DNA of 64,000 nucleotides, from assembly GCA_040753675.1 (NCBI GenBank), contig JBFMEB010000001.1, positions 32,498 to 96,497 of the forward strand. The letters are read 5' to 3'. The first letter of the stretch is position 1; each line of letters starts with the position of its first letter. Positions 13,293-31,625 of this stretch are shown here, piece after piece. Under the pieces are notes generated by a model. The model was not told where the DNA came from. It did not search any database and was given only the letters and a program-made list of their open reading frames with translations. The position numbers and the translations under genes are program-made. Origin of the DNA: Candidatus Omnitrophota bacterium. Lineage in GTDB: Bacteria; Omnitrophota; Gorgyraeia; JAHJTE01.

Positions 13293-13432
13293 CTAACTAC
13301 TCCTTATAAATAAAAAATTAAAATAACCGAATAATAAATAAGATGATCAGCAGATTCTGGAAAATTTACGCTCTTTATAAGCAATTTTAACTATGTTTAT
13401 CTGTGATCATCTACGATTTAAGGACCGTCAAA

Positions 13433-17230: not shown

Positions 17231-17303
17231 TGGAGCGGAGCGGATTTGAACCGCCGACCTCCTCGTTGCGAACGAGGCGTTCTCCCAGCTGAACTACCGC
17301 CCC
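17231..17303 (-). tRNA. tRNA-Ala (anticodon CGC)
   Basis: GGGGCGGUAGUUCAGCUGGGAGAACGCCUCGUUCGCAACGAGG...GGUUCAAAUCCGCUCCGCUCCA with the G3:U70 Ala identity pair. Confidence 0.8.
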
Positions 17304-17384: not shown

Positions 17385-17996
17385 CTACTGGGAGGACGCG
17401 GCAGGAATCCTTGCTGCGCTAACTAAAGTTACTTCTTGATTTAATGCAGATGGAGGTTGCGAAGGATTCTGACGGCAAGTAATTTCTATTCTGATGAACT
17501 GGTCGTTAAACGCGTTACCGTCAGCGTTTAAATCAACTGCTTCAAAAATCGGTGCATCAACAATGTTTCCAATAAGAATCACCCAAACCGGAGGTGCGGG
17601 AGGATTAGGATAGCGGTTATTAGTAAATTCAATCTGATTATTGTTCCATCTATAACCTACCCACCTGTCGTTAGGGTCTACTCCTGAAGGAGGTAAATCT
17701 TCTCTATGTAGAACCAATTCAAAACCTATAGGTGCATCAGCCCCAAATTTATCAAAGATATAAAAAGCATCTCTAAGAGCACCAGAGCCTGGAGGATCAC
17801 CAAAAGATTGCATTATGTCCCTAACAATAAGCTCCACAGCATAAGATACCTGATTTGCAAGGCGTGATTGTGAATTTTCACTTGCTAAAAATCTATTTGA
17901 ACTTGCATTAATAGCTACACCTGCTAAAACAACAAGCCCTAAAAGCACAATGCCAATACAAAGCTCAACCAGCGTTAGTCCCGTTCGAGATTTCAT
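17385..17996 (-). CDS. Pseudopilin / minor pilin-like protein (prepilin-type N-terminal domain)
   Basis: MKSRTGLTLVELCIGIVLLGLVVLAG class III leader and hydrophobic helix. Confidence 0.6.
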   Translation of the reverse strand: MKSRTGLTLVELCIGIVLLGLVVLAGVAINASSNRFLASENSQSRLANQVSYAVELIVRDIMQSFGDPPGSGALRDAFYIFDKFGADAPIGFELVLHREDLPPSGVDPNDRWVGYRWNNNQIEFTNNRYPNPPAPPVWVILIGNIVDAPIFEAVDLNADGNAFNDQFIRIEITCRQNPSQPPSALNQEVTLVSAARIPAASSQ

Positions 17997-18121
17997 AAAT
18001 GTTAGTCAAAAGTTGTCATACAATTGTCATACTATTGTCATATATTGTTTTTGCAATGTATGACCATATTTGACTATTTATGACTATGTATGACTTATTA
18101 GTATCTGTGCTAATCTGTGTT
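17997..18121. promoter_or_regulatory. Helically phased array of GTCA/TGAC half-sites: 3x TTGTCATA at 18013-18041, then 4x TATGAC at 18059-18096, all on a 10-bp register
   Basis: Read directly from the sequence: tgaccatatt tgactattta tgactatgta tgacttatta, with TGAC at 18061, 18071, 18081 and 18091. Confidence 0.5.
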
Positions 18122-18568
18122 TTAAGGTTCGGTCCAACGTATTGTTACTGTTACCTGACGGGCATCATTTAAGATGCTAGCAACCTCATATTCACAAGTG
18201 GCATTAAATGGCGCTAGAGCAAACGCACCCATGTTTATATTGCAAGGCTTGGGTACGCCTCCAGTAGGGTCTAATCTATCGCCATCAACGCCATCAGCCC
18301 AATCCCGTGCATCAACAGACCATCTTAACTCTTCGAAGGCCTGGCGGACATAATTAGCTGCGAGTAGCCTTCTGTTTGAACGAATAATAATCCTCTGCGA
18401 AGATACAAATGAACCAATCACTCCCGCAATAACTATTGCCAGTATAGTTGATGCCACTAATATCTCAACCAGAGTGAGTGCTCTTAAAGAAGTTTTTTTG
18501 TTTTGGCTTATTCTCACTTTGTTACCACCACCTAGCCACTTCCCAAGTGCCATCCCAGACTTCGGCAT
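18122..18568 (-). CDS. Pseudopilin-like protein (leader ...SLRALTLVEILVAS)
   Basis: Hydrophobic N-terminal helix with conserved Glu+5; 148 aa. Confidence 0.5.
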   Translation of the reverse strand: MPKSGMALGKWLGGGNKVRISQNKKTSLRALTLVEILVASTILAIVIAGVIGSFVSSQRIIIRSNRRLLAANYVRQAFEELRWSVDARDWADGVDGDRLDPTGGVPKPCNINMGAFALAPFNATCEYEVASILNDARQVTVTIRWTEP

Positions 18569-18932
18569 TAGTTAAGGTAATTGTCCTGGTATTATATGCA
18601 AGTAAGCCGCCAGTGCGAGTAGCTGTAGCAGTAAAATTTGGTCCAGCTACAACAGCCACGCTATAATCCCATCCTCCAGCTCTTAAGTCTAAATTAAGAT
18701 TGGTATTACAATCAGTGGTATTATTGCAGGCAACAAATCCACCTGTCTGCAAGAAAATAATGCGCTCTGCAGCGAATATCACTTCCAGCCCAACCCTTGC
18801 CTCTCTGGCAAGTGCAGACTCCATGCTGGTTTGATACTGAGAAAATCCAATTGTGGCTAATACGCCGATTATTACCAGCGTAATCATTATTTCCATCATT
18901 GTAAAAGCTTTACTTAAGAATATCCTCGTCAT
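18522..18932 (-). CDS. Type IV pilin (PilA-like), paralog of 22282-22698
   Basis: KAFTMMEIMITLVIIGVLATIGFSQY canonical type IVa pilin N-terminus; C-terminal CN...DCNT with two Cys (disulfide loop). Confidence 0.75.
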   Translation of the reverse strand: MTRIFLSKAFTMMEIMITLVIIGVLATIGFSQYQTSMESALAREARVGLEVIFAAERIIFLQTGGFVACNNTTDCNTNLNLDLRAGGWDYSVAVVAGPNFTATATRTGGLLAYNTRTITLTNAEVWDGTWEVARWW

Positions 18933-18989: not shown

Positions 18990-19385
18990 TTAGGGACAGG
19001 TGACAGGATTTGGAGGGTCACTAATATCAGTAATATTACCGCCTCTGTCAATTTTATAACCCCTGTTTGTATTCTTGCGACAGGCCTTGAGTTGCAAATC
19101 GCCTCCTGAAATAGTAATTTCATAATTAAAATGGCTCCCTTTCACTGCGCCTGGGTCATCCAGGGCCAAATCAGCTAAACTTGCAGCATACTGCTCGAAA
19201 AAAGCAAAATGATCCTGCTGTGCGCTCCAAATAGCTCTTAACCCAACCTCTGCTTCTCGCTCGATTTGCCTTTCTGCCATATTTAGAAAGATAATAAAAC
19301 CTATTCCAGAAAGAACTGCTATAATTATTAATGTTACAAACAATTCAATAAAACTAAAACCTTCCTCTGATTTTATCTCATTCAT
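18990..19385 (-). CDS. Minor pilin-like protein (start set at MNEIKSEEGFSFIEL)
   Basis: GFSFIELFVTLIIIAVLSGIGF prepilin motif; the upstream part of the ORF overlaps the neighbouring gene and was trimmed. Confidence 0.6.
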   Translation of the reverse strand: MNEIKSEEGFSFIELFVTLIIIAVLSGIGFIIFLNMAERQIEREAEVGLRAIWSAQQDHFAFFEQYAASLADLALDDPGAVKGSHFNYEITISGGDLQLKACRKNTNRGYKIDRGGNITDISDPPNPVTCP

Positions 19386-19443
19386 TGCGTCTACTCTGTC
19401 ATTAGCGATTATCCTGAAAGTAGTTTTTTGCTGTAGGTGAGAT

Positions 19444-19932
19444 TTACAAGTTTTGAAAATGGACATGGCCGCTTACTGCCCAGCCTGTTGGCACCACATC
19501 AGCATCAACATGGATTCCCGGAACATTATAGTTGTGGGTGTGGGCTGGACCACCCGAGTTATCTGATGTCTCAAATTCTAATAGCGTCATGTCATCGATA
19601 TCAATAGCAATTCCATCTGACCAGGCTGCCTCAGTGATAACCTTATTCAAATCTGGATCATTAAGTTTTTCATATCTTAGTTCATCATCGAAAGCGCCTG
19701 CGCCCTTCGGTATGCGATGAGTAACAAAAAATTGAGTCGCCCGCCACTCTTCATCTACCCACGCGCCCTCTGAAGCATCACCTTTATCGCTGAAATGAAC
19801 CAAGGCAGCATCAAAATGGTCTGAAGCAACATTAGCAAAGGTTGACTTATAGCCAAAAAATGCCAAAGAGAATAAGACAAGTGTTAGTAAACAAACTCCA
19901 AAGGTTATCATGGAAACTTTTATTAGGCTCAT
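19444..19932 (-). CDS. N-terminally membrane-anchored secreted protein, His-rich, C-terminal SGHVHF motif; unknown function
   Basis: Single N-terminal TM helix; C-terminus HTHNYNVPGIHVDADVVPTGWAVSGHVHFQNL. Confidence 0.45.
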   Translation of the reverse strand: MSLIKVSMITFGVCLLTLVLFSLAFFGYKSTFANVASDHFDAALVHFSDKGDASEGAWVDEEWRATQFFVTHRIPKGAGAFDDELRYEKLNDPDLNKVITEAAWSDGIAIDIDDMTLLEFETSDNSGGPAHTHNYNVPGIHVDADVVPTGWAVSGHVHFQNL

Positions 19933-19948
19933 AGTACTCTCTCCTTTG

Positions 19949-20206
19949 TTATCTAGATAAAGGTTGAGGTGAGTCTACGATAAATTCGTATTCATCCTCT
20001 CCTTCCCTTAAAGCCTGCTCTATAGCCTGCGCGCGCTGTTGTATAATTGGATTCTTAGCGCCAGAAATCTGTAGTTTTCTCTGCACAATAAAATACTGCC
20101 GGATTTTTTTTATCTTTGATAATCCCATCCCTATTATCAGGCCGCATAAAAAACAAACTAGTGCAATAATTATTATTCGAAATGTATATGCCCGTGAACT
20201 CGCCAT
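19949..20206 (-). CDS. Small single-pass membrane protein
   Basis: 85 aa, N-terminal TM helix (IIIIALVCFLCGLIIGMGL), charged C-terminus. Confidence 0.4.
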   Translation of the reverse strand: MASSRAYTFRIIIIALVCFLCGLIIGMGLSKIKKIRQYFIVQRKLQISGAKNPIIQQRAQAIEQALREGEDEYEFIVDSPQPLSR

Positions 20207-20550
20207 TTGGTTACCTTCATAATTGCCTGACCCCTAATAACTGGTAGTTTTACTGTGCCAGGTGCGTAGGATGAATTTTCTTCATACAACTTAACTGACT
20301 GCTCAGGTGCTTGAGCTGAAGTATCGGGATTAAAACTTTTAAATTCTTTATCTGGTTCGCTCCAATAATAAGCTTCAATTGCCTGCCAGTGTTCATCGTA
20401 ATAAACACTAGCTGGACTTTCGCCTGCAGAAACCTCACCGATAGGATCTGATGCCTCTAATCTTGCAGCCATATAAAGAAACCCAGCAATAATTCCTAAA
20501 GATAGAGACAAACCAATACATATGCCTAAAATTACTGTCTTCTTTTTCAT
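20173..20550 (-). CDS. Membrane-anchored protein with C-terminal HGHIHFE motif (paralog-like of 19444-19932)
   Basis: N-terminal TM helix; C-terminus ...KVTKWRVHGHIHFE. Confidence 0.4.
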   Translation of the reverse strand: MKKKTVILGICIGLSLSLGIIAGFLYMAARLEASDPIGEVSAGESPASVYYDEHWQAIEAYYWSEPDKEFKSFNPDTSAQAPEQSVKLYEENSSYAPGTVKLPVIRGQAIMKVTKWRVHGHIHFE

Positions 20551-20572
20551 CTTTTCACCTCTTATATATAAC

Positions 20573-21034
20573 CTATCCCCCTGGTCTATCTAAGATAAAT
20601 ATAGGAAAAGCTCGCCTGCCGCCGGCTTCTAATATATAGACATTATTCCAAATCGCACCAACAGGAGGTACTGGTATTGATTCTTTTGTCTTTAGATTAA
20701 AAGGTGACTGCACTGCTGCTGTAATTTTTGTTCGACCTGGCCCTGGCTCTTCTATTCGATAGTATATATCAAAAGCCTCACTTGGCTCTCCCAAAATTCT
20801 ATAGGCGAATACCTTATCCTTGGAAACTGGTACAGTACCATTCCTTATATCAATCAAAGCCATGCTAATCCCGGCCTCACATAGATAATAGGCTTTAGTG
20901 GCGTCAATCCAGCGCAATGCTCGGCTTGTATCAAGCCTAAGCATGGTAAATATAACTACTGTGCTTAAGGACAGAATAAAAATCAGACCTACGGCGAGAA
21001 TTAAGACAATGCCTTTTGAATGTTTAAATCTCAT
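20573..21034 (-). CDS. PilX/GspK-like minor pseudopilin (atypical leader)
   Basis: N-terminal hydrophobic helix GIVLILAVGLIFILSLSTVVIFTML; genomic position within the minor pilin block. Confidence 0.4.
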   Translation of the reverse strand: MRFKHSKGIVLILAVGLIFILSLSTVVIFTMLRLDTSRALRWIDATKAYYLCEAGISMALIDIRNGTVPVSKDKVFAYRILGEPSEAFDIYYRIEEPGPGRTKITAAVQSPFNLKTKESIPVPPVGAIWNNVYILEAGGRRAFPIFILDRPGG

Positions 21035-21041
21035 GCTAGTT

Positions 21042-21509
21042 TTAGTTAATGAGTCCGTGAGGAGTCATATTATTACGCGGCACTACAGCAGTACGAACAG
21101 GATAATCTTTTCCCTGACTACTTGTTAGGATAATATGCATCTCAACACGGCCTGTATCTTCACCAAACCCAGGTGTTTTTGTAAAATAAGCACTGGAAAC
21201 GCCTTTCAAGAAAACATCTCCATTAAGGTCAAGTGTTCCTGCGCTATCGTCAAATCTGATTGCCCCTCCTGAAAAGGTAATTATTTTATGGTCAGCAGAG
21301 ACAGCAGGTACTTCGTTAGAGTACAATAAACGCTGAAAGGCATACTCCATTCCATGGATAGCCCTGCCCTGGGAGATTCCAACATCAGCCCTGGCTTCAA
21401 CATCGACACGACTTAAGAATGAACCTACTGTCCAACTAAGGGCAATGATGAGCACTGTCAAGGCAGTAGCTATAACCAGTTCCACTAAACTAAATCCTTT
21501 TCTTTCCAT
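21042..21509 (-). CDS. Pseudopilin (PilW/GspJ-like)
   Basis: MERKGFSLVELVIATALTVLIIALSWT prepilin leader. Confidence 0.6.
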   Translation of the reverse strand: MERKGFSLVELVIATALTVLIIALSWTVGSFLSRVDVEARADVGISQGRAIHGMEYAFQRLLYSNEVPAVSADHKIITFSGGAIRFDDSAGTLDLNGDVFLKGVSSAYFTKTPGFGEDTGRVEMHIILTSSQGKDYPVRTAVVPRNNMTPHGLIN

Positions 21510-21536
21510 CTTTGCCTCACCCCTTTGTGAAAAAAT

Positions 21537-22187
21537 TTACCATCTCAGTCGCCCTAAATTTAACTGAAGTTGATCGTTAGTTGACTTTATCGGAATCGTG
21601 CCGAGATAAATTACATAATCTTTACCTTCTTCTTTCCATTGTACTCTAACATCTGTTTGAAATGCGGCTGAACTTAAATCACTAATGAGCGGCCACTTGC
21701 GCGCAATAAAAGTAATCTTAACGCTTTTGTAGTCTGACTTTGGCACTAATTTTTTGACTTCAATATCTCCTATCCAATCAAAGGGACAAGTAATACCTGG
21801 CGGGTCTGGCACTCCACTTGTATTGTTTATATCGTAATGTGTCCATGATTTCAAACCATAACCAACCGTGGTAGTATCAGCACCTTGCCATTTAAGATCA
21901 CACATTGTATACGGCCATGGTGGAACCGGTTCCATAACTATATCAAAATCAGTAACACAATTAGTTCCTGGCTCATACATATACTTCAGCCCTAACGGAT
22001 GCGGCATCCTGCCAGATTCAGCCCATTCTACGCACTCCCTAGCAAGATTATATGCTGTGTAGCGGTAACCCACTGTCTGGGCAAGTTTTTTGTACCCCCG
22101 ATAACTAGAAACAAAACCAAGCATACCCACAGCTAAAATCATTGTGGCGACTAATAACTCAGTTAATGTAACTGCCTTATTTTTCAT
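21537..22187 (-). CDS. Pilin-like protein (start set at MKNKAVTLTELLV)
   Basis: AVTLTELLVATMILAVGMLGFVSSY prepilin-type helix. Confidence 0.55.
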   Translation of the reverse strand: MKNKAVTLTELLVATMILAVGMLGFVSSYRGYKKLAQTVGYRYTAYNLARECVEWAESGRMPHPLGLKYMYEPGTNCVTDFDIVMEPVPPWPYTMCDLKWQGADTTTVGYGLKSWTHYDINNTSGVPDPPGITCPFDWIGDIEVKKLVPKSDYKSVKITFIARKWPLISDLSSAAFQTDVRVQWKEEGKDYVIYLGTIPIKSTNDQLQLNLGRLRW

Positions 22188-22281
22188 CCTATTACAAGTA
22201 TAACATAGGCTACAGCAAACTTCTATTAAATCTTGATTTAGAGTCAAGATTATAGATTATGAGAAAGGTGTGCAATTTTAC

Positions 22282-22698
22282 TTAGAGAAACGGCCAGGTG
22301 CCTGACCAGGAAGGATCTGGGCTGACGCTCGGGTCGTAGGTCATTACAATAGTTTTAGCATTATATGCCGCTTGTCCACCGGAGCGGGTAGCTGTACTAA
22401 CAAAAGAATCCGCAGCACCAGCAACACTATAATTCCATTCCATTGAACTAAGTTCTAGATTAAGCAACGTGTTGCAGTCAGCGGTGTTAAGGCAGGTTCC
22501 ATATGTTGGATTCTCGCCCCGATAGATTCTCTCTGCAGTGTAGACTAACTGCAGACTATTTATAGCATCCTGCCCCTTAACTTTCTCATTTATACTCTCA
22601 TATTGAGAAAATCCCAGCACAGCTAATACACCAATGATTACCAGCGTAATCATTATTTCCATCATGGTAAAGCTGTTAGCACATGAGAAAATTCTCAT
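22282..22698 (-). CDS. Type IV pilin (PilA-like), paralog of 18522-18932
   Basis: NSFTMMEIMITLVIIGVLAVLGFSQY; shares the C-terminal CLNTADCNTLLNLEL...YSVA...ATRSGG region with the 18522 gene. Confidence 0.75.
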   Translation of the reverse strand: MRIFSCANSFTMMEIMITLVIIGVLAVLGFSQYESINEKVKGQDAINSLQLVYTAERIYRGENPTYGTCLNTADCNTLLNLELSSMEWNYSVAGAADSFVSTATRSGGQAAYNAKTIVMTYDPSVSPDPSWSGTWPFL

Positions 22699-22739: not shown

Positions 22740-23201
22740 TTAATATCCGCCTGTCCCAGTCCATGAATCAGCGCCAGTAGCAAGATTACTTGTTAAAATT
22801 AAGGTTGTTGCTGCTGGACCGCCTGGCTGCTTACCATTACCGCCGGTACAACGAGTAGCTGTAATAACTACTTGATTAAGTACAGCGTTAGTAACGCCAT
22901 ACATAAAAAAGTACTGAGTACTAGGTGCTGCTGCTGCGCATGCATCAGAAATTTGACCAGGTTGATTACCTATGCCTACCATAGCATTTGTAAGTGTGCC
23001 GGCTGGTAGCGAATTGTTATTTTGCATATAAATTGCTGCAGCCTGAGTCCTTATCGTCCCAATAACTGACCTTGCTTCTGCGCCACGCGAACGCTCTACC
23101 ATTCTCTGGAACTGCGCAAATCCCAGGGTTGCCAATATACCCAAAATTATGATAACAATTACCAGTTCCAATAGCGTAAAACCCATTATCTTCTTTCTCA
23201 T
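22740..23201 (-). CDS. Major pilin / GspG-like pseudopilin
   Basis: MRKKIMGFTLLELVIVIIILGILATLGFAQFQ classic prepilin peptidase site (G|FTLLE). Confidence 0.75.
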   Translation of the reverse strand: MRKKIMGFTLLELVIVIIILGILATLGFAQFQRMVERSRGAEARSVIGTIRTQAAAIYMQNNNSLPAGTLTNAMVGIGNQPGQISDACAAAAPSTQYFFMYGVTNAVLNQVVITATRCTGGNGKQPGGPAATTLILTSNLATGADSWTGTGGY

Positions 23202-23287: not shown

Positions 23288-24550
23288 TTAGCCTCCAAAC
23301 CCTCCGCCGCCAGTTGAAAGCTTAAAAATAGGCCAGTACATTGCAATAACCATTGCTCCGATAAGTAAGCCCATAAATACAATCATTACGGGTTCAAAAA
23401 TAGAAGTCAACCGGGCAATAAAGGTTTCTACATATTGCTGATAATAATTGGCTATACGATTACACATCTTAGGTAGTTCGCCTATCTCTTCGCCGATAGC
23501 AACCATCTGCGTTACCATTGGAGGAAAAAGACCTGACTCTTCCAAGGGAGCATGGAATGTTTTGCCTTGGCGCACTGACTCTTTTACATGCTCAACCGCA
23601 TCTTCCATCAGGACATTTCCCATACCGTGTTGGGTAATTTCTAAGGCATAAAGTATTGGTACACCGCTTTCTAAAAGCATTGAGATTTGCGAGGCAAATC
23701 TCTCCATTAAAATTGCCTGAATCATCCCTTTTAAAAGAGGAATTTGTAATTGTTGTTTGTCAAAGAGCCTTTTGCCAGCGCCAGTCGAAATAAAGTTTTT
23801 TAGACCAAAGAATAAACCAATACAGCCGAGAATTATATAAATTATACCACGGCGCAAAAAAATACTCAATGACAATAATATTCTCGTTACCAAAGGTAGT
23901 TTAATATTAAAGGTAGAAAATATTTCGTAAAATCTTGGGACAATAAAAAATAAAAAAGCAAAATTTGCTAAGAGGGCGACTACTAACAAAAGTAATGGAT
24001 AAATCATTGCTGAAATAAGTTTAGTCTTAAAAGCCTCGCGTGCCTCTAAATAAAATGCTAATTTATCCAAGACAACCGGTAGGCTTCCGCTCGCTTCACC
24101 CGCGGTAACTAAATTAATCCAGAATTTAGAAAATATTTTAGGATGTTCTGCAAGAGAATCTGAAAGATTTCTTCCAGAAGAAACATCTTTTTTTATTGTC
24201 TCAAGCGCGCTTTGAAGCTTACGACTGGTAACCTGTAAAGAAATAATTTCGAGGCATCTTAAAAGATTAACGCCGGCGCTAAGCATGGTTGCGAGTTGTC
24301 TGGCAAATATCACTAAATCACTAGATTTCACTCCAGAGTGTTGGCTAAGGCCGACCTTCGGGCTTGGCCTTGCTCTTGCCTGCATTTCAGTAGCTATCTT
24401 ACCCTCTGACAAGACCTCTTCTCTAATTGAAACCACAGTAACGCCTTCGGCTTGAAGCTTATTCAAAAGCAACTCTTCGCTTTCTGCCTCAGCCCTGTTT
24501 GTCTGTTTTCTCCCGTCTTTAGAAATAACTGTATAGATAAATTTAGCCAT
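23288..24550 (-). CDS. pilC: Type IV pilus / T2SS inner-membrane platform protein (GspF/PilC family)
   Basis: Two T2SSF repeats (LATMLSAGVNLLRCLEI ... ESGVPILYALEI). Confidence 0.85.
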   Translation of the reverse strand: MAKFIYTVISKDGRKQTNRAEAESEELLLNKLQAEGVTVVSIREEVLSEGKIATEMQARARPSPKVGLSQHSGVKSSDLVIFARQLATMLSAGVNLLRCLEIISLQVTSRKLQSALETIKKDVSSGRNLSDSLAEHPKIFSKFWINLVTAGEASGSLPVVLDKLAFYLEAREAFKTKLISAMIYPLLLLVVALLANFAFLFFIVPRFYEIFSTFNIKLPLVTRILLSLSIFLRRGIIYIILGCIGLFFGLKNFISTGAGKRLFDKQQLQIPLLKGMIQAILMERFASQISMLLESGVPILYALEITQHGMGNVLMEDAVEHVKESVRQGKTFHAPLEESGLFPPMVTQMVAIGEEIGELPKMCNRIANYYQQYVETFIARLTSIFEPVMIVFMGLLIGAMVIAMYWPIFKLSTGGGGFGG

Positions 24551-24551
24551 T

Positions 24552-26270
24552 TTATCCCTCTGCGATTATCGCCATTACCTCTTCTAAACTAGTAATACCT
24601 TTTTCAACTTTTTTAAGGCCGCTTTCCCACAAAGTATCCATCCCTGATTGCCTCATAGCCTCCTTAAGCTTTGAGCTTTGGGCTCCCTCTAAAGCAAGAC
24701 GTGTAATCTCTTCGGTATTAAGCATAACTTCGTAAACCGCGACTCTACCCCGATATCCGATCTGATTACATTTCTCGCAACCTTTTGCCTTATAGATGAG
24801 GTCAACATTTAACTTTATTTTGCCTAATTTTTCTTTATCCGGCTCATAGGCCTCTTTACACTCCGGGCATAATTTTCTCACTAATCTCTGAGCGACTATC
24901 AATAACAAAGAGGGCATTAATAGATACGGCTCTATCCCGATATCAATCAGTCGCGTGATTGCAGAAGGCGCGTCATTAGTATGCAAGGTGCTCATTACTA
25001 AATGGCCGGTTAAGGCTGAACGGATACAAATCTGGGCAGTTTCTAAGTCCCTTACCTCGCCCACCATCATAATGTCCGGGTCCTGACGCAAGAAAGAACG
25101 TAGAGCAGTAGCAAAGGTAAGCCCGATTTCAGATTTTACCTGAACCTGATTTATTCCCTCAAGCCGATATTCAACCGGGTCTTCGACGGTAACGATATTT
25201 TTATGCGGATTGTTTATCTCGTTTAAAGCAGCGTAGAGAGTAGTAGTTTTTCCGCTACCGGTCGGGCCGGTCAAAAAAACCATTCCATAAGGCGAAATTA
25301 TTGCTTTTCGAAAATATTCTAACTGTTTAGCTTCAAATCCCAGCTGGCTTAACTCTAAAGGCAGCTGGCTCCTATCTAAAAGACGAATAACTACCTTCTC
25401 GCCGTATACGGTAGGTATGGTGGAAACCCGCAAATCGATAGTCCGTTTTTCGGAACGGACCATAAATGCGCCGTCCTGGGGAAGGCGTTTTTCCGCAATA
25501 TCCATTTTGGCCAGAATTTTAATCCGGGAAATTATGGGCAGATGCAAATGTTTTGCCGGAGGAGGTATGTCGTAAAGCATGCCGTCAATCCTGTACCTTA
25601 GGCTAATCCTGTCTTTATAAGGCTCAATATGTATGTCAGAAGCGCGTTCATCTATTGCCTGACGGATAACCAAATCAACTAATTTTACTACCGGAGCTTC
25701 CTCTGCCTTAGCAATTAATGTATCTAAACTTAGCTCGTCCTCGGCTAACTCGCCTGCTGCCTCTTCTGTTTCTTCTTCGGTCTTGCCATAAGATTCTTTT
25801 ACTGCTTCTTTTAAAAGGTTAACTTTGCCGTAAAACTCTTCTATCGCCTTTAAGATATCTGTTTTCGTGGCAATAACCGGATTAATCTCGCAACCGGTCA
25901 TCTTCCTTAAATTATCTATTAAAACTAAATCCATCGGGTCATAGATTGCGCAGGTAAGAGAATTTAAATTTTTAGAAAGCGGAAGTAAAATATTTTTGAT
26001 AGCAAAATCCTTCGGGATTAATTTTTCTAAACCTTGGTCAATAGCCGGTCGCAACAAGCCGACTCCAGAAGTGACATAAGGAATAGCTAATTGTTTGCCT
26101 AAGGTGGCGACTAAATCATGCTCGCTAACCATCCCCAGGTAAACAAAAACTTCCCCTATCCGGGAATCTTTTTGTTTTTTCTGCTCATCCAGGGCTTTAA
26201 CCAGCTGCTCTTTGGTAATTAACCCTTCTTTAACTAACAAGTCGCCTAATTTTAATCTCTGCTTGGTCAT
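24552..26270 (-). CDS. pilB: Type IV pilus assembly ATPase (GspE/PilB family) with N-terminal GSPII_E_N domain
   Basis: Walker A LTGPTGSGKTTTLYA, Asp box, His box and tetracysteine motif CPEC...CEKC. Confidence 0.9.
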   Translation of the reverse strand: MTKQRLKLGDLLVKEGLITKEQLVKALDEQKKQKDSRIGEVFVYLGMVSEHDLVATLGKQLAIPYVTSGVGLLRPAIDQGLEKLIPKDFAIKNILLPLSKNLNSLTCAIYDPMDLVLIDNLRKMTGCEINPVIATKTDILKAIEEFYGKVNLLKEAVKESYGKTEEETEEAAGELAEDELSLDTLIAKAEEAPVVKLVDLVIRQAIDERASDIHIEPYKDRISLRYRIDGMLYDIPPPAKHLHLPIISRIKILAKMDIAEKRLPQDGAFMVRSEKRTIDLRVSTIPTVYGEKVVIRLLDRSQLPLELSQLGFEAKQLEYFRKAIISPYGMVFLTGPTGSGKTTTLYAALNEINNPHKNIVTVEDPVEYRLEGINQVQVKSEIGLTFATALRSFLRQDPDIMMVGEVRDLETAQICIRSALTGHLVMSTLHTNDAPSAITRLIDIGIEPYLLMPSLLLIVAQRLVRKLCPECKEAYEPDKEKLGKIKLNVDLIYKAKGCEKCNQIGYRGRVAVYEVMLNTEEITRLALEGAQSSKLKEAMRQSGMDTLWESGLKKVEKGITSLEEVMAIIAEG

Positions 26271-26280
26271 AGAGTACTAC

Positions 26281-26450
26281 TTTTGAAATCCCAATGTCAA
26301 ATACTACCAATACTACCAAATAAATCCCAATTTCAAATAAATACCAAATTTTGGATTTGGGATTTTGGATTTATTTTGCCTGCCTGCCGGTAGGCAGGGA
26401 TTTTGTAGTATTTGGATTTTGGATTTTAACATTAGTCTAATTTCACTACC
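26281..26450. promoter_or_regulatory. Repeat-rich intergenic element: GGATTTT / TACTACCAA repeats flanking an 8-bp stem hairpin (26379-26398)
   Basis: ttggatttgggattttggattt ... CCTGCCTG ccgg TAGGCAGG ... tttggattttggatttt; inverted copies of ggtagtatttg on both sides. Confidence 0.4.
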
Positions 26451-26456
26451 ACTGTA

Positions 26457-27971
26457 TCACAAATTATTGCTTTTTTCAAACTCGGATAATGCTTTATTAA
26501 CTTCTTCATTTAAAGAGGTCAGCGGCCCTTGCTCGCGGTCTAAGGTAGTATATTCACTAATTACCTGCGACATTGCAACTGCGTTAGTTCTTAAAAGATG
26601 CGGAGTAATAAATATTATCAGTTCTCTATTTTTAGTCGTGCCTTCTCGGTGACGAAATGCAGCACCTAAAAACGGTATGTCGCCTAAAATCGGCACTTTT
26701 TTGCGAACTTGAGAATCATCCGTCCGGATTAACCCTCCGATAACCACAGTCTCGCCATCCGGCACCATTACTGTAGATTTGGTAGCCCGGCTTTCCGGAT
26801 CTTTCAGGGTATTACCCTGTAAAGTAATTGTGCCTGCCTTAGCTTGAGTCACGCTGGTCTCAAGAAACATGGTAACCTCTCCGCTGTGGGTGTTTATTTG
26901 CGGCGTAACCCGTAAAAGGATACCCGTCTCTGCTCTTTCTGCTGTCTGGGTGATGGAACCGGCGCTTCCTCCGGCTGCTGCTGTCTCGGTAGTAACGCCG
27001 ATTGCCTCATCAACAGTTATCCTTATTTCAGAGGTCTCATTTGAAAGCGTTAACAGCCGAGGCCTGGCTAAATATTTTGTATCCGTGTGAGTCTGCAGTA
27101 ACTGAAGAGTGGCGGTTAAAGATTCAGCACTAAGCATACCAAAGTGTGTAGTCTGGCGGGTGGCGTTACCCTTCATGTCATTACCAAAAGGAAATCTTAA
27201 TTCTTGGCTGGGGCCAGTAAATTTTAACGCAGTATTAGAAAACTTGACTCCCAATTCATCAAGCACATCCTGATTAGCGTCCAACATCTCGATTTCAATC
27301 ATAACCTGTGGAATCGGGATATCTAATCTAGCAATAGTCTCTTGTATCGTCGTAAATCTACTGGCAATATCAGTCACTATTAAACTATTGGTGCGGGTAT
27401 CTTCAACTACCCGGCCGTTAGTGGATATAACCTTTTTTACCGCAGCAGTAATATTATCCTCTCCGGTTGTGCTGGAGGCGGAAGCGCCTCCTTCGTCAGA
27501 AGAAATCTTATCCTCGATTTCTTTTGAAAGGCGGGAATTTGAGACTCGGGCGTATTTTAAATAAAATACCTTGGTAACCATATCAATCTCCGAGCCGCCC
27601 TTATCCTTTACGATAAAAATATCCGAACTTTCTTCCTTTTCATAGGTCAGGTTATTCGCGGCAAGAAGTTTTTCTAATGCCTCATCCACAGACACATCCT
27701 TTAGATAAAGGGTAATCTTTCTATCTTCCACTGCAGCACTAGCAATAAAATTTAAGTTCGCCTGCTGGGAAAATATTTTTAATACATCTTTTAAATTTGC
27801 CTCCTTAAAATCCATTGAAATTTTAGGCATTTCTGTTTGAAAAACAATATTCTGCCATGGAGGAGAGCCCCGAGCAAAGATGCTCGGCATAAATAAAAAC
27901 AATACTAAAAATATCGCTATCGCAACCAATTTTGCGCGCTCTAATCTAAACAATTCGTTAAGGCTTTTCAT
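26457..27971 (-). CDS. pilQ: Secretin (PilQ/GspD family)
   Basis: Secretin N domains and C-terminal secretin core VVIGGLIRTDDSQVRKKVPILGDIPFLGAAF. Confidence 0.85.
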   Translation of the reverse strand: MKSLNELFRLERAKLVAIAIFLVLFLFMPSIFARGSPPWQNIVFQTEMPKISMDFKEANLKDVLKIFSQQANLNFIASAAVEDRKITLYLKDVSVDEALEKLLAANNLTYEKEESSDIFIVKDKGGSEIDMVTKVFYLKYARVSNSRLSKEIEDKISSDEGGASASSTTGEDNITAAVKKVISTNGRVVEDTRTNSLIVTDIASRFTTIQETIARLDIPIPQVMIEIEMLDANQDVLDELGVKFSNTALKFTGPSQELRFPFGNDMKGNATRQTTHFGMLSAESLTATLQLLQTHTDTKYLARPRLLTLSNETSEIRITVDEAIGVTTETAAAGGSAGSITQTAERAETGILLRVTPQINTHSGEVTMFLETSVTQAKAGTITLQGNTLKDPESRATKSTVMVPDGETVVIGGLIRTDDSQVRKKVPILGDIPFLGAAFRHREGTTKNRELIIFITPHLLRTNAVAMSQVISEYTTLDREQGPLTSLNEEVNKALSEFEKSNNL

Positions 27972-27997: not shown

Positions 27998-28396
27998 CTA
28001 TGGATACAAGGTAAAAAGCTTACCTTTGAATAATACAGCGACTTCTTTTGGTTTTATGCTAATTATAGTAATCGGCTCTCCATTATTTATTACGTCTCCT
28101 TCCCGCATTACATGACTTTCGATAATTACCTGGGGAAACTTGCCGCCCCAAACAATGCCTTCAATTTTTAAATCCGGTGCTAAAACAGGAGCCTGAGGAA
28201 CAATCCTCACCTCTCCTTGCTTAATTTGTTTCTCAGGCATTAAAGACCTGAATGGATCTCTCCCTGTCGGATTAAATGTCGGCTTTCTTGCGGTAACAAT
28301 TTCGGCCTTGCTAAGTAAATTTTGGAAAAAAAAGCATATAATCAGCAACAAAACAAGGGTTATCTTTTGCATACTTATCTTCAGGGTAATTATCAT
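27998..28396 (-). CDS. pilP: PilP-like pilus assembly lipoprotein
   Basis: Signal/anchor plus RDPF motif and C-terminal beta domain; position between pilO-like and pilQ. Confidence 0.45.
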   Translation of the reverse strand: MIITLKISMQKITLVLLLIICFFFQNLLSKAEIVTARKPTFNPTGRDPFRSLMPEKQIKQGEVRIVPQAPVLAPDLKIEGIVWGGKFPQVIIESHVMREGDVINNGEPITIISIKPKEVAVLFKGKLFTLYP

Positions 28397-28962
28397 TTTT
28401 TTGAAATATATTCAGAAAGATTTGGCTCTTTCAGAACTACCGCGTGTAAGGTGATGCTAATACTAAGATAAGCCAAATTCTCTCTCTGGCTAGCTTGTGG
28501 GGAGATCTGCAAACTTGTAATATCAATAAATCCCTCGTAACCCTCAGCTAGACTTAAAAATTGCCCGAGACTCAAGTAGTCGCCTTTTGCCATTAAGGTT
28601 ATTGGAGTGTAATTAAAAAATTGACCGCTTGTATCAGTCAAGAGCGGACGCAAAGATATTAAATCCAAGCCCGAACTTTTTGCCCATTCGTTAATCAAAT
28701 TTAGTAACCCAGCGGAATCTTTTTCAAAAAATATTTCTTTTTTATAGAGTTGAATGTCCTTTACTAAAGTATCGATATCGGAAAAAAGCGTATCTTTGCT
28801 CTTTTGGCTACTGATCTTCTCATGTAACAATTGGAGGGTGTTTCTATTCTTAGTGTTGATTTTAAACGCAACTAACAAAGCAACAACAGCCATAATAATA
28901 ACTACTACATTATCGGTTTTTTTAAAAATTTCTTCTGCTTTTATTTCATTTAAATTAATCAT
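28393..28962 (-). CDS. pilO: PilO-like pilus assembly protein
   Basis: Single N-terminal TM helix, coiled coil, C-terminal domain; position downstream of pilMN. Confidence 0.5.
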   Translation of the reverse strand: MINLNEIKAEEIFKKTDNVVVIIMAVVALLVAFKINTKNRNTLQLLHEKISSQKSKDTLFSDIDTLVKDIQLYKKEIFFEKDSAGLLNLINEWAKSSGLDLISLRPLLTDTSGQFFNYTPITLMAKGDYLSLGQFLSLAEGYEGFIDITSLQISPQASQRENLAYLSISITLHAVVLKEPNLSEYISKK

Positions 28963-28971
28963 AAGATAAAT

Positions 28972-30537
28972 TTATCGACATTGAATCTGAAATTGCCTAA
29001 CCACAAAATCATCGACCGAAGATTGACTCACGGAACTAAGGACAATCTCTTTAAAACCCTCTTTAAAGAGAGTATCTGAACGCAAATTATTTAGCAGTTG
29101 ATTAATCGCTGGTAACTCATCCTGGGACATCTCTAAATAAGCGAAACCTTCTAAATTTATTTCTAATGAATTTAAATCTTTCCTAAAGTTAAGACGCTCT
29201 AACCAAACACCTTCTGGCAGTAGTTTGCTTAAACGTTCTATTTTTTCTGTTAAGTAGACTTTCTGGCTAATCGTAGATTTAATTTGACTAAGTTCTCCTT
29301 TTAAAGATTCCTTTATCTTTTGCAAATCATTTAGTTCTAAGTTGGCACCTTTAAGGGCAAAAATACTTTTCCCTTTTAGTGTGACAAGATCAGAAACCTG
29401 TTTTTCAACTCTCTTTACTTTTATGTTACCCCAAAACCATATTAAAAAAACCATGCTTGTTAAGACTGCTACGGAGATAGCGTATTTCTTAAATGTTGTC
29501 TTCGAAATAAAAGTTTTTGATATTGCTTCAAATTGTGGCTGTGCCTTCTTAATTTGCGGCTCTTTTCTAAGAAGATTCAAATCAATAGGAAACCTTACTA
29601 TTTGTCTTAGCGAGGCGCCCGCTGCTTTAAGCAAATCACAATGTGCTCCTTCAATATTCAAGAGCTTGCCTGCCTCAAATGAGGCACATTTTATACCCAA
29701 TTCCTGCGTTATCATTTCTGCCCAAGAAATAACTTGGTTAGAGTCTGAAAAAAGATAAATATTTAAGATATTATTCTCTCGCCTATTCTGTCTATGTCTA
29801 AAATAATCAATCGAAATTCTAATTTCATTTACTAATTTAGATAGTACAGCCTGAGTTTCCTCTGAGCCGCCTATTGGCATAGATGAAGTCAGGCTTATAT
29901 CCCTAATAAAACAAGGCAAACCAGAATCTAAGATTATAATATCGCCGTTAGACAAATTAGAGTCTATATCTACAATTAAGGCACCTCTCTTTCCTTCTCG
30001 ATTTAACTTGGTCTTTATATAAGCTAAACGTAAAAAACTCAAAGATGATGGCTCAAGCGACAAAATATTAAAACCCACCTGGTTAAATACTTTAATATAC
30101 TTATCAATGATCTTCTTTTTAATTGCCGCAAAAATTATTTCTAAAGATTTAGCATCCTTTCTTTGGCTAATAAATTTAAATATTAATTCCTCAATTCTAA
30201 AAGGAATGTATTTTCTGGCTTCAAAATTTACTGTAGAATCCATGTCCTTTTTTGAAACAACCGGTATGTTAAAAAACCTTACCAACACGTCAAAAGCAGG
30301 CAAGGCAATATGTGCATCACGAGAACTAAAATCATTTTCTCTTATTGCCTTTTGTATTACTGCGGCGAATTTAATATCATCTTCAGATATCTCATCTAAA
30401 CTAGCCCCAAAAGAGGAAAGACTCTGTCTGCAATGCCTTCTAATTTCTTTGCCGGCAAATTCAACAATGCTTAATGCATCCTGGCCTAAATAAATTCCCA
30501 ATTGCGTCTTTTTAAGACTTTTTATTAATCTTTGCAT
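28972..30537 (-). CDS. pilM: PilM-PilN fusion protein (actin-like ATPase domain + TM + PilN-like periplasmic domain); start set at MQRLIKS
   Basis: N-terminal PilM-like region (LGIYLGQDALSIVEF...), TM helix AISVAVLTSMVFLIWFWG at about residue 375, coiled-coil C-terminus. Confidence 0.65.
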   Translation of the reverse strand: MQRLIKSLKKTQLGIYLGQDALSIVEFAGKEIRRHCRQSLSSFGASLDEISEDDIKFAAVIQKAIRENDFSSRDAHIALPAFDVLVRFFNIPVVSKKDMDSTVNFEARKYIPFRIEELIFKFISQRKDAKSLEIIFAAIKKKIIDKYIKVFNQVGFNILSLEPSSLSFLRLAYIKTKLNREGKRGALIVDIDSNLSNGDIIILDSGLPCFIRDISLTSSMPIGGSEETQAVLSKLVNEIRISIDYFRHRQNRRENNILNIYLFSDSNQVISWAEMITQELGIKCASFEAGKLLNIEGAHCDLLKAAGASLRQIVRFPIDLNLLRKEPQIKKAQPQFEAISKTFISKTTFKKYAISVAVLTSMVFLIWFWGNIKVKRVEKQVSDLVTLKGKSIFALKGANLELNDLQKIKESLKGELSQIKSTISQKVYLTEKIERLSKLLPEGVWLERLNFRKDLNSLEINLEGFAYLEMSQDELPAINQLLNNLRSDTLFKEGFKEIVLSSVSQSSVDDFVVRQFQIQCR

Positions 30538-30542
30538 AACTA

Positions 30543-30640
30543 ATTCACGAATTCTCACGAATTGCACACAAATTCTCACGAATAAATTCCGATGATAAAT
30601 TCGTGTTTATTTGTGTGTAATTAGTGTCCGTTCGTGTTCC
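30543..30640. promoter_or_regulatory. Operator-like repeat cluster: 3 direct CACGAAT repeats plus inverted ATTCGTG, inside a 19-bp imperfect palindrome cacacaaaTTCTCACGAAT / ATTCGTGtttatttgtgtg
   Basis: CACGAAT at 30546, 30556 and 30577; ATTCGTG at 30599; a further TTCGTG at 30631. Located between the HTH gene and the pilM start. Confidence 0.5.
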
Positions 30641-30671
30641 ATTGGTTTTGAAATTATCAATAACATAATCC

Positions 30672-30854
30672 TCACTCAATTCTTTGCTCATGCTCCCGAA
30701 GCCATTTATCCACACTCTTCTTGTCGAATCTCCACACACCGCCAACCTTAATTCCAGAAAATTTCTTCTGATTTAACCAATTGTAAATAGTCTGTTTACC
30801 TAAACGTAAATAGTCAGCTAATTCTTGGATATCCATTAATCTTGACATAAGCAA
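30672..30854 (-). CDS. Excisionase-family / MerR-like helix-turn-helix DNA-binding protein (60 aa)
   Basis: MDIQELADYLRLGKQTIYNWLNQKKFSGIKVGGVWRF matches the AlpA/Xis-type HTH_17 pattern. Confidence 0.65.
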   Translation of the reverse strand: MLMSRLMDIQELADYLRLGKQTIYNWLNQKKFSGIKVGGVWRFDKKSVDKWLREHEQRIE

Positions 30855-31079
30855 CCCTTTAGTTATTGAGTTAAATTTTGTTAAAGTCTATTTTACCTTA
30901 AGTATAACAGAATTCATTTAAACATAATAATATTACTTTGTCAATAAAATTTTAATAAATTTTTATTTAGATTTACTTAAACTTACTTATAAATTTTCTT
31001 AACATATTGTAAATTAAATAGTTATAAAAACTAATAATTAATATTTGAATCTTAATTTAATTGAATAATAATGGTTGGA
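30855..31079. promoter_or_regulatory. 225-bp extremely AT-rich intergenic region (probable promoter / curved DNA) upstream of the HTH-pil operon
   Basis: More than 80% A+T with A/T tracts; no ORF. Confidence 0.4.
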
Positions 31080-31409: not shown

Positions 31410-31625
31410 CTAATTCTCGACCTTACGCAAGGTTATACAATACCCTTGACCTTCATCGGCTAAAATTACGTGCCCTTCCCTCGCTAACCAACCGATACTC
31501 ATTAGTAATAAATCACGAGGTTTGTCAATATTAGAAAATAGATCATTTAGCTTAGTTTTACCGTGGCTGTCAAGATAATGCCAAATATCCCCTGCTGCTA
31601 TACCGATTTCAGTAATCATGTGCAC
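31410..31625 (-). CDS. Small winged-helix protein (DUF2582-like), 71 aa
   Basis: IGIAAGDIWHYLDSHGKTKLNDLF...GWLAREGHVIL pattern. Confidence 0.4.
   Translation of the reverse strand: MHMITEIGIAAGDIWHYLDSHGKTKLNDLFSNIDKPRDLLLMSIGWLAREGHVILADEGQGYCITLRKVEN

Follow-up and report, generated by a model that had tools for sequence, protein, structure and literature searches.

In a Candidatus Omnitrophota bacterium, the far end of a type IV pilus operon raises a question of function. In the gap between two minor pilin genes, here called C and D, a four-letter core recurs at helical spacing in two facing series, and this array could be a binding site for a regulatory protein, a spacer that acts within the messenger RNA or a by-product of local duplication. 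An earlier note on the sequence took it for a multi-site operator or enhancer and likened its units to those bound by PilR-like NtrC regulators upstream of pilin genes. The DNA analysed here, referred to as the window, is a stretch of 64,000 nt from a MAG of this organism (GCA_040753675.1, JBFMEB010000001.1, 32,498-96,497).

Genomic context

The window (1-64000) carries 60-odd genes, on the minus strand throughout, and 100% of its ORFs of at least 110 aa lie on that strand. Within it the pilus operon runs in the order pilMN, pilO, secretin, pilB, pilC and pilins, all on the minus strand, with the C-D gap at its distal end. The features that matter for the argument are the following:

31410-31619, minus strand: DUF2582 winged-helix gene, 69 aa, before pilM
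30672-30848, minus strand: HTH_17 (Xis/BldC-like) gene, 58 aa, before pilM
28972-30579, minus strand: pilM/N
28393-28962, minus strand: pilO
26457-27971, minus strand: secretin
24552-26270, minus strand: pilB
23288-24550, minus strand: pilC
down to 17385, minus strand: about twelve pilin-like genes
22740-23201, minus strand: major pilin orthologue
18122-18568, minus strand: gene C, minor pilin with N_methyl motif, its orthologues directly upstream of D in all relatives
17997-18121: C-D gap, 125 bp, read directly from the sequence
17385-17996, minus strand: gene D, last minor pilin, 203 aa, with a prepilin-type N-terminus
17231-17303: tRNA, after the pilus operon

No ORF spans the gap, and a coding region was rejected on this ground. 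No gene for a response regulator, for an enhancer-binding protein (AAA+) or for rpoN/sigma-54 was found in the 64-kb window. Gene D has orthologues in all relatives, at 40-48% identity. No Shine-Dalgarno sequence was found before its ATG, and the neighbouring pilin genes in the cluster have clear AGGAGG-type sites, a pattern that suggests constitutively low or unusual translation initiation of gene D. A gene D without a Shine-Dalgarno sequence (window site 17997-18003) also occurs in the relatives L001, L249 and L250; in L253 and L254 this gene is preceded by weak, distant GA-rich matches alone.

Elsewhere in the window, three tandem paralogous pilin genes lie at ~6877-8251, and between two tRNA genes, at 5950-5978, a tRNA 5' half is repeated as a third, partial copy. 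Compared with L001 and L251, the window has ~3.8 kb of extra genes between pilins A and B (18990-22698), which are pilin-like and small membrane-protein genes; the pilin B paralogue at 22282-22698 is 49% identical to 18522-18932.

Layout of the array

On the plus strand the gap (17997-18121) begins with aaatgtTAGTCAAAAGT TGTCATACAAT TGTCATACTAT TGTCATATAT tgtttttgcaatg and continues with TATGACCATA TTTGACTATT TATGACTATG TATGAC ttattagtatctgtgctaatctgtgtttt. It is divided as follows:

18003-18048, plus strand: left arm, four direct units, period 10, 11, 11 (TRF)
18049-18058, no strand: centre of symmetry and hairpin loop, TTTTTGCAATG region, with TTGCA at 18051-18055
18059-18097, minus strand: right arm, four direct units, period exactly 10 (TRF)
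18097-18121, minus strand: older gap module CACAGATTAG-CACAGAT (18103-18119) with a small ATTAG/CTAAT stem, recognised by homology to L250

The array is therefore built of 4+4 convergent units about a centre of symmetry at ~18050, with GTCA at 18005, 18015, 18026 and 18037 in the left arm and TGAC at 18061, 18071, 18081 and 18091 in the right arm, where the period is exactly 10. Seven half-sites, arranged three and four, had been counted in the earlier note; eight are present, the unit with GTCA at 18005 having been missed. This fourth left-arm unit (tAGTCAAA) is weaker and lies 10 bp further out than the three copies of TTGTCATA, which start at 18013, 18024 and 18035 with spacings of 11 and 11 bp; of the starts previously assigned to these copies the first was correct, and the other two (18023 and 18034) were off by one. 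Written in full, the left-arm units are tAGTCAAAagt, TTGTCATAcaa, TTGTCATActa and TTGTCATAtat (Tandem Repeats Finder: period 11, 3.4 copies), and those of the right arm, read on the minus strand, are AGTCATAcat, AGTCATAaat, AGTCAAAtat and GGTCATAcat (period 10, 3.7 copies). The right arm had been described as four TATGAC repeats exactly 10 bp apart, of which the positions and the spacing stand but not the identity, since the unit at 18069-18074 is TTTGAC. The TTGCA reported between the two groups is indeed present in the centre. That all sites lie on one face of the helix is true within each arm but not between the arms: the innermost units of the two arms are 24 bp apart centre to centre, which at 10.5 bp/turn places the arms ~100 degrees out of phase.

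Conservation among the units is concentrated in the core. GTCA is found in all eight and GTCATA in six of the eight, and the 3-nt spacers of the left arm (caa, cta, tat) mismatch at all positions. Among the better units the seven differences fall 6:1 outside the core (rough p ~0.03). As a word GTCATA is not enriched in the window (24 found against 21 expected), and six of these 24 are packed within 80 bp. GTCA and TGAC are the sole 4-mers in the 64 kb with phased arrays of four or more copies spaced 9-12 bp apart, six of the eight 5-mer phased arrays in the window fall inside the C-D gap, and an inverted pair of phased arrays arose in none of 300 first-order Markov simulations. The existence of the phased GTCA/TGAC array is thus confirmed, and chance is far from accounting for it. 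The palindrome is imperfect and made of short units in arms of unequal period, and an assembly artefact was rejected on these grounds.

The same junction in relatives

A homologue search with protein D returned itself alone, and orthologues were therefore traced by synteny via PilC and PilB. Six relatives were compared at the C-D junction, L001 having been reached via PilC and the others via PilB homologues (83-88% identity). The orthologues of C and D are neighbours in all six, and the junction between them varies as follows:

L251: C and D overlap
L001: gap of 9 bp
L254: gap of 61 bp, fold z -4.3, a GC stem followed by TTTTATTTTTAT (T-run)
L250: gap of 78 bp, fold z -1.0, not significant
L249: gap of 82 bp, fold z -5.6
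L253: gap of 106 bp, fold z -3.4
Window: gap of 125 bp, fold z -4.8

Three of the four expanded gaps in relatives thus fold significantly, with sequences unrelated to the window gap; that of L254 looks terminator-like. Among the window's own gaps of at least 50 bp, three of 17 have z below -3, and set against this background the three of four in relatives indicate that structure is enriched at the C-D junction (binomial p ~0.02).

The motif search covered the 64-kb window and ~85 kb of relatives, ~150 kb in total. No GTCA array, nor even a two-unit pair, was found in the ~85 kb from the six relatives, and no second GTCATA-array site, even of two units, elsewhere in the 64-kb window. The earlier note had held that a motif widespread in intergenic DNA would indicate a generic repeat rather than a dedicated operator; the motif itself occurs nowhere else in the window and relatives, but the style of element does recur, as described below. 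An exact 30-mer of the array is absent from species-representative genomes, and BLAST searches of plasmid and phage collections gave no copy of the array. The first ~25 nt of the window gap (aaCACAGATTAGCACAGATactaat) match the start of the L250 gap and are the sole part with a counterpart; within them, the 17-mer ACAGATTAGCACAGATA is found again in L249, though in another gap. Because the only counterpart is this older CACAGAT module, the GTCATA palindrome is a lineage-specific insert beside it. The pilin genes that flank the array have 59-63% DNA identity to L249; they evolve fast, and the non-conservation of the spacer is therefore weaker evidence here than it would be in the pilB region.

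Copies of the CACAGAT / AGATGATCACAGAT motif, both direct and inverted, occur in several gaps of the clade that are unrelated to one another (window 13350-13412; L249 9900-9990 and 15530-15570; L250 9334-9380; L253 6585-6647), its copies at 13350-13412 forming an inverted pair, AGATGATCACAGAT ... ATCTGCTGATCATCT. Its behaviour is that of a short dispersed repeat or of a binding motif common to these gaps.

RNA folding, promoters and terminators

The sense (minus-strand) RNA of the gap is predicted to fold with an MFE of -27.1 kcal/mol (z -4.1 to -5.4), and none of 200-300 shuffles was as stable. Pairing in the predicted stem involves the GTCATA cores, whereas the variable spacers lie in bulges, and the stem ends 7 nt short of the gene D start codon. 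With C and D co-oriented and a stable fold on the minus (transcribed) strand, the gap has the arrangement of an intercistronic stem-loop. The weight of the fold is nevertheless limited: its significance follows automatically from the inverted arrangement and is not independent evidence, the unequal periods of the arms introduce bulges into the stem, and the plus-strand (antisense) RNA folds more strongly than the sense RNA, at -34.6 kcal/mol, so that energy cannot tell the strands apart.

No sigma-70-like site (at least 9 of 12 matches) was found in 17997-18121 on either strand. TGG-N8-TTGC has no match in the gap, and the sole -24/-12-like element there is TGGTCATACATTGCA (18052-18066, minus strand), a TGG-N7-TTGC that is one base short; the earlier statement that no sigma-54 -24/-12 element with correct spacing is present is thereby borne out. 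As there is no promoter-like site in the gap, the palindrome is most likely transcribed within the pilin mRNA. Canonical sigma-54 spacing is seen in TGGCGGCTTACTTGCA at 18597-18612 (minus strand), within pilin gene B and ~30 nt before the gene C ORF; sigma-54-spaced matches in the window are not above chance (eight found, 4.9 expected).

A scan for intrinsic terminators found none in the gap. The array stem is AU-rich and without a U-tract, and is followed by AACAUUUAUG, whereas the true terminators of the window (63284-63364 and 8270-8366) are GC-rich with T-runs. Rfam 15 gave nothing at the gathering score; at E up to 10 it returned generic microRNA-precursor hairpins alone, at 15-18 bits against thresholds of 67-104.

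Other palindromes and conserved spacers

The convergent layout is not confined to the C-D gap. At least three other short-unit palindromes have the same layout with different motifs in the pilus operon and its clade: AAAATCC/GGATTTT at 26271-26456, CACGAA/TTCGTG at 30541-30640 and CACAGAT/ATCTGTG in L249. The first of these occupies the secretin-pilB spacer, where a 186-bp palindrome of AAAATCC heptads and GGTAGTATT units (z -4.5) centres on a GC hairpin, CCTGCCTACCGGCAGGCAGG. It has one heptad fewer than L249, to which its first 88 nt are 95% identical, and its 3' half is an inverted copy specific to the window; at 18-31 bp, the same junction is short in L001, L250, L251 and L253. The difference in heptad number, together with the window-specific inverted copy, indicates that slippage and inverted duplication are active here.

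The second lies in the spacer between the HTH_17 gene and pilM (30538-30671), adjoining the probable pilM start (ATG 30537-30535), and consists of CACGAA units followed by AATTCGTGAG x4 (30541-30583, period 10). This spacer is 96% identical to L249, and pilB compared with L249 is 94% identical at codon position 2 and 63% identical at third codon positions. L250, L251 and L254 lack it and have a gap of 3-7 bp instead. The spacer is likely to be a functional non-coding element, and it is possibly a target of the adjacent HTH_17 protein. The HTH_17 gene is present in every relative whose locus reaches that region, and the closest solved structure to its product is a phage Xis-like protein (4j2n, E 0.03). 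Upstream of the gene is a conserved TTGACA promoter (30939-30944), and period-10 TAAGTAAGT units at 30971-30990 are common to L001, L249, L251 and L254.

The gaps of L249 contain the CACAGAT/ATCTGTG arrays and, in three gaps, a REP-like CCTGCC..GGCAGG hairpin. L249 also has a 71-bp palindromic insert, CCCCGTGGAATTC...GGGG, at 5299-5369, and inserts with TACCCCGTTAGAGAT-type inverted ends are found at L249 14846-15031 and L250 1-140; these palindromic inserts look like miniature mobile elements. The convergent-array build is thus a recurring style in the clade, with another motif each time. Functional non-coding DNA elsewhere in the operon keeps 95-96% identity to L249; the GTCATA array has no such conservation, which is evidence against a dedicated operator.

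Interpretation

The reading that we favour, tentatively and with a probability of about 0.45, is that the array arose recently, in this lineage alone, as a palindromic spacer, and that its transcript forms a hairpin by which gene D is uncoupled. A ~95-bp imperfect palindrome would have grown inside a formerly tight junction of two co-transcribed minor-pilin genes, each arm probably having expanded through local duplications in tandem of a unit peculiar to it, 11 nt long in the left arm and 10 nt long in the right. In the mRNA the palindrome would form a long AU-rich stem-loop of ~-27 kcal/mol just before gene D. This stem-loop may break translational coupling between C and D, may insulate or lower expression of D, which is the last minor pilin and also the largest, and may shield the mRNA upstream of it; it could be under selection or be tolerated. 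Comparative and positional observations favour this reading: the array is confined to one genome, the junction is variable and unrelated hairpins recur there in relatives, the insert lies within an operon and no promoter was found in the gap, the best arm points away from gene D, the operon holds sibling palindromes made of other motifs, and the cores pair in the predicted stem while the spacers bulge. However, a hairpin needs neither eight copies of a 6-mer nor a period of 10-11 bp, a pattern that cooperative DNA binders give, and three perfect 8-mers with fully diverged spacers look like motif-level constraint. The stem is also not terminator-like, and the rapid evolution of the flanking pilins weakens the argument from non-conservation.

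REP/BIME-type intercistronic palindromes and other stem-loops set differential mRNA stability. The array resembles them in its position between co-oriented operon genes, in the stable stem-loop on the transcribed strand and in its patchy occurrence across lineages, and the relatives hold other hairpins at the C-D junction. It differs in being single-copy in the sequence searched, AU-rich and composed of phased 10-11 nt units, as opposed to a GC-rich unit found genome-wide.

Possible, although less probable than a transcribed spacer, is a newly evolved multi-site operator for a cooperative head-to-tail winged-helix protein. This protein could be a response regulator of the OmpR/PhoB family or the 58-aa Xis/BldC-like HTH_17 protein that the operon itself encodes, and it would either activate gene D from an internal promoter or stop read-through out of gene C. 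Evidence from within the array points toward protein recognition: the core is invariant, the spacers vary and the units recur every 10-11 bp, a period suited to cooperative winged-helix binders. In sequence the motif comes closer to PHO boxes than to PilR sites. PHO boxes consist by definition of 11-nt direct repeats, seven positions being conserved and four variable, with a CTGTCAT core and head-to-tail binding (PMC4415409), and this definition fits the left arm, whose direct repeats are 11 bp long with AT-rich variable positions and whose TTGTCAT matches the CTGTCAT of E. coli at six of seven positions. The units of a PHO box run toward the gene in place of the -35, with a -10 ~10 bp downstream; in the array, by contrast, the perfect left arm (plus strand) reads away from gene D with no -10 in register, and only the poorer 10-bp arm (AGTCATA) points to D. 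That right arm has a period of 10 and an AGTCA core in which the T of TGTCA is lost. Furthermore, the two arrays converge here, an arrangement that would put bound protein at the position of RNA polymerase, and they lie inside a pilin operon, not at a phosphate gene.

A metagenome scan for three successive TTGTCATA-N3 units gave at least 120 loci. Among the matches listed, the great majority are perfect tandem repeats with an 11-bp unit and an unrelated origin, such as arrays next to tRNAs in gut contigs or long arrays resembling satellites, and none is a homologue of the C-D gap element. In L120 a near-identical array with the same TTGTCAT core, TTGTCATAtaaTTGTCATAcaaTTGTCATA (7378-7407), stands 35 bp upstream of a PhoB gene (TIGR02154, 337.5 bits, cutoff 296.2) that is followed by PhoR, and its units face the regulated gene. 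The same array precedes a PhoB-like N-terminus in L028, L108, L113 and L115, the phoB-phoR family identity having been checked in L120 only. These loci show that AT-rich organisms use putative PHO boxes of the TTGTCAT type in three-unit arrays. Two convergent GTCA/TGAC arrays came from viral contigs, scanned with a looser pattern. On the phage contig L166 (6209-6290), GTCATAGTCT x4-5 is followed by three opposite TGAC units in the divergent region that separates the primase and terminase genes, likely an origin or packaging-site context; the L166 array is an analogue in shape only.

With respect to the second candidate binder, proteins of the BldC/Xis type bind head-to-tail on variable numbers of ~9-bp direct repeats with the consensus AATTXXXX(C) (PMC5859096). 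Each of their sites is an AT-rich tetramer with a downstream contact, the left-arm units can be read in this manner as AATTGTCAT and TATTGTCAT, and the operon encodes a 58-aa protein of that fold class (30672-30848). A better candidate target of the HTH_17 protein, however, is the conserved AATTCGTGAG x4 array at 30541-30583. Against an operator of either kind stand the lack of a promoter-like site in the gap, of a second site in the window or the ~85 kb of relatives and of a response regulator gene in the window, as well as the fact that the array is missing from all six relatives. In addition, three other arrays of the same style with different motifs would each require a protein of their own.

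It is rather unlikely that the array is functionless, whether as a tolerated product of slippage and inverted duplication or as a low-copy palindromic mobile repeat (MITE/REP-like). The confinement of the array to one lineage agrees with such an origin, as does the character of the junction, a hot spot with a different insert in each relative. Clear palindromic inserts occur in the relatives, the heptad copy difference between the window and L249 shows slippage, and the adjoining CACAGAT module is itself dispersed. Against a mobile repeat, no second copy was found in the window, the relatives or the plasmid and phage collections, and no target-site duplication or transposase is visible, although the outer ends, TTAGTCA / TGACTTA, are inverted. 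Recent duplication, for its part, predicts identical spacers, whereas those of the left arm are diverged and the cores perfect, and the equal number of units (4+4) suggests constraint.

More speculative, and in our view improbable, is the idea that the four convergent palindromes (GTCATA, AAAATCC, CACGAA/TTCGTG and CACAGAT) are one element class. On them, small proteins of the winged-helix or ribbon-helix-helix type would form filaments on the DNA, or ring-shaped proteins would bind the RNA, and the long pilus operon would thereby be split into segments that can be tuned separately. On this view the GTCATA array would be the newest of these elements; it might recruit a PhoB-like regulator, and phosphate status would then be linked to the tip pilin of an ultra-small, possibly host-dependent bacterium.

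PilR sites are tandem TGTC-containing units upstream of sigma-54 pilin promoters. A PilR/NtrC enhancer, as proposed in the earlier note, is very improbable at this locus: TGTC-containing tandem units do lie near a pilin gene, and the central TTGCA is -12-like and, on the minus strand, has a TGG lying 7 nt upstream of it, but the spacing is TGG-N7-TTGC where the canonical form is N8, the array overlies the would-be promoter instead of lying upstream of it, the downstream gene is the last minor pilin and not the major pilin, the window has neither an enhancer-binding protein nor an rpoN gene, and none of the six relatives has the array. Also rejected were an integron attC site (the R'/R'' cores misfit and there is no integrase), iterons or an origin (the site is within an operon) and a DNA-uptake sequence (the motif is not over-represented).

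Significance

The array is one unconserved example of an element whose kind is already known, either the intercistronic palindrome or the direct-repeat operator. Two other segments of the operon, the spacer at 30538-30671 and the opening 88 nt of 26271-26456, exceed the surrounding genes in conservation and make better leads than the array, and the recurring convergent-array build is likewise a more promising lead than the GTCATA array itself. If the array is a spacer only, it would be a small example of junction hairpins altering minor-pilin ratios in fast-evolving uncultured lineages. We know of no transcriptional regulation described for the phylum Omnitrophota; if the array is an operator, it would show that a regulatory element with several sites can arise de novo in a single lineage, and would suggest that these bacteria have a regulator for the composition of the pilus tip.
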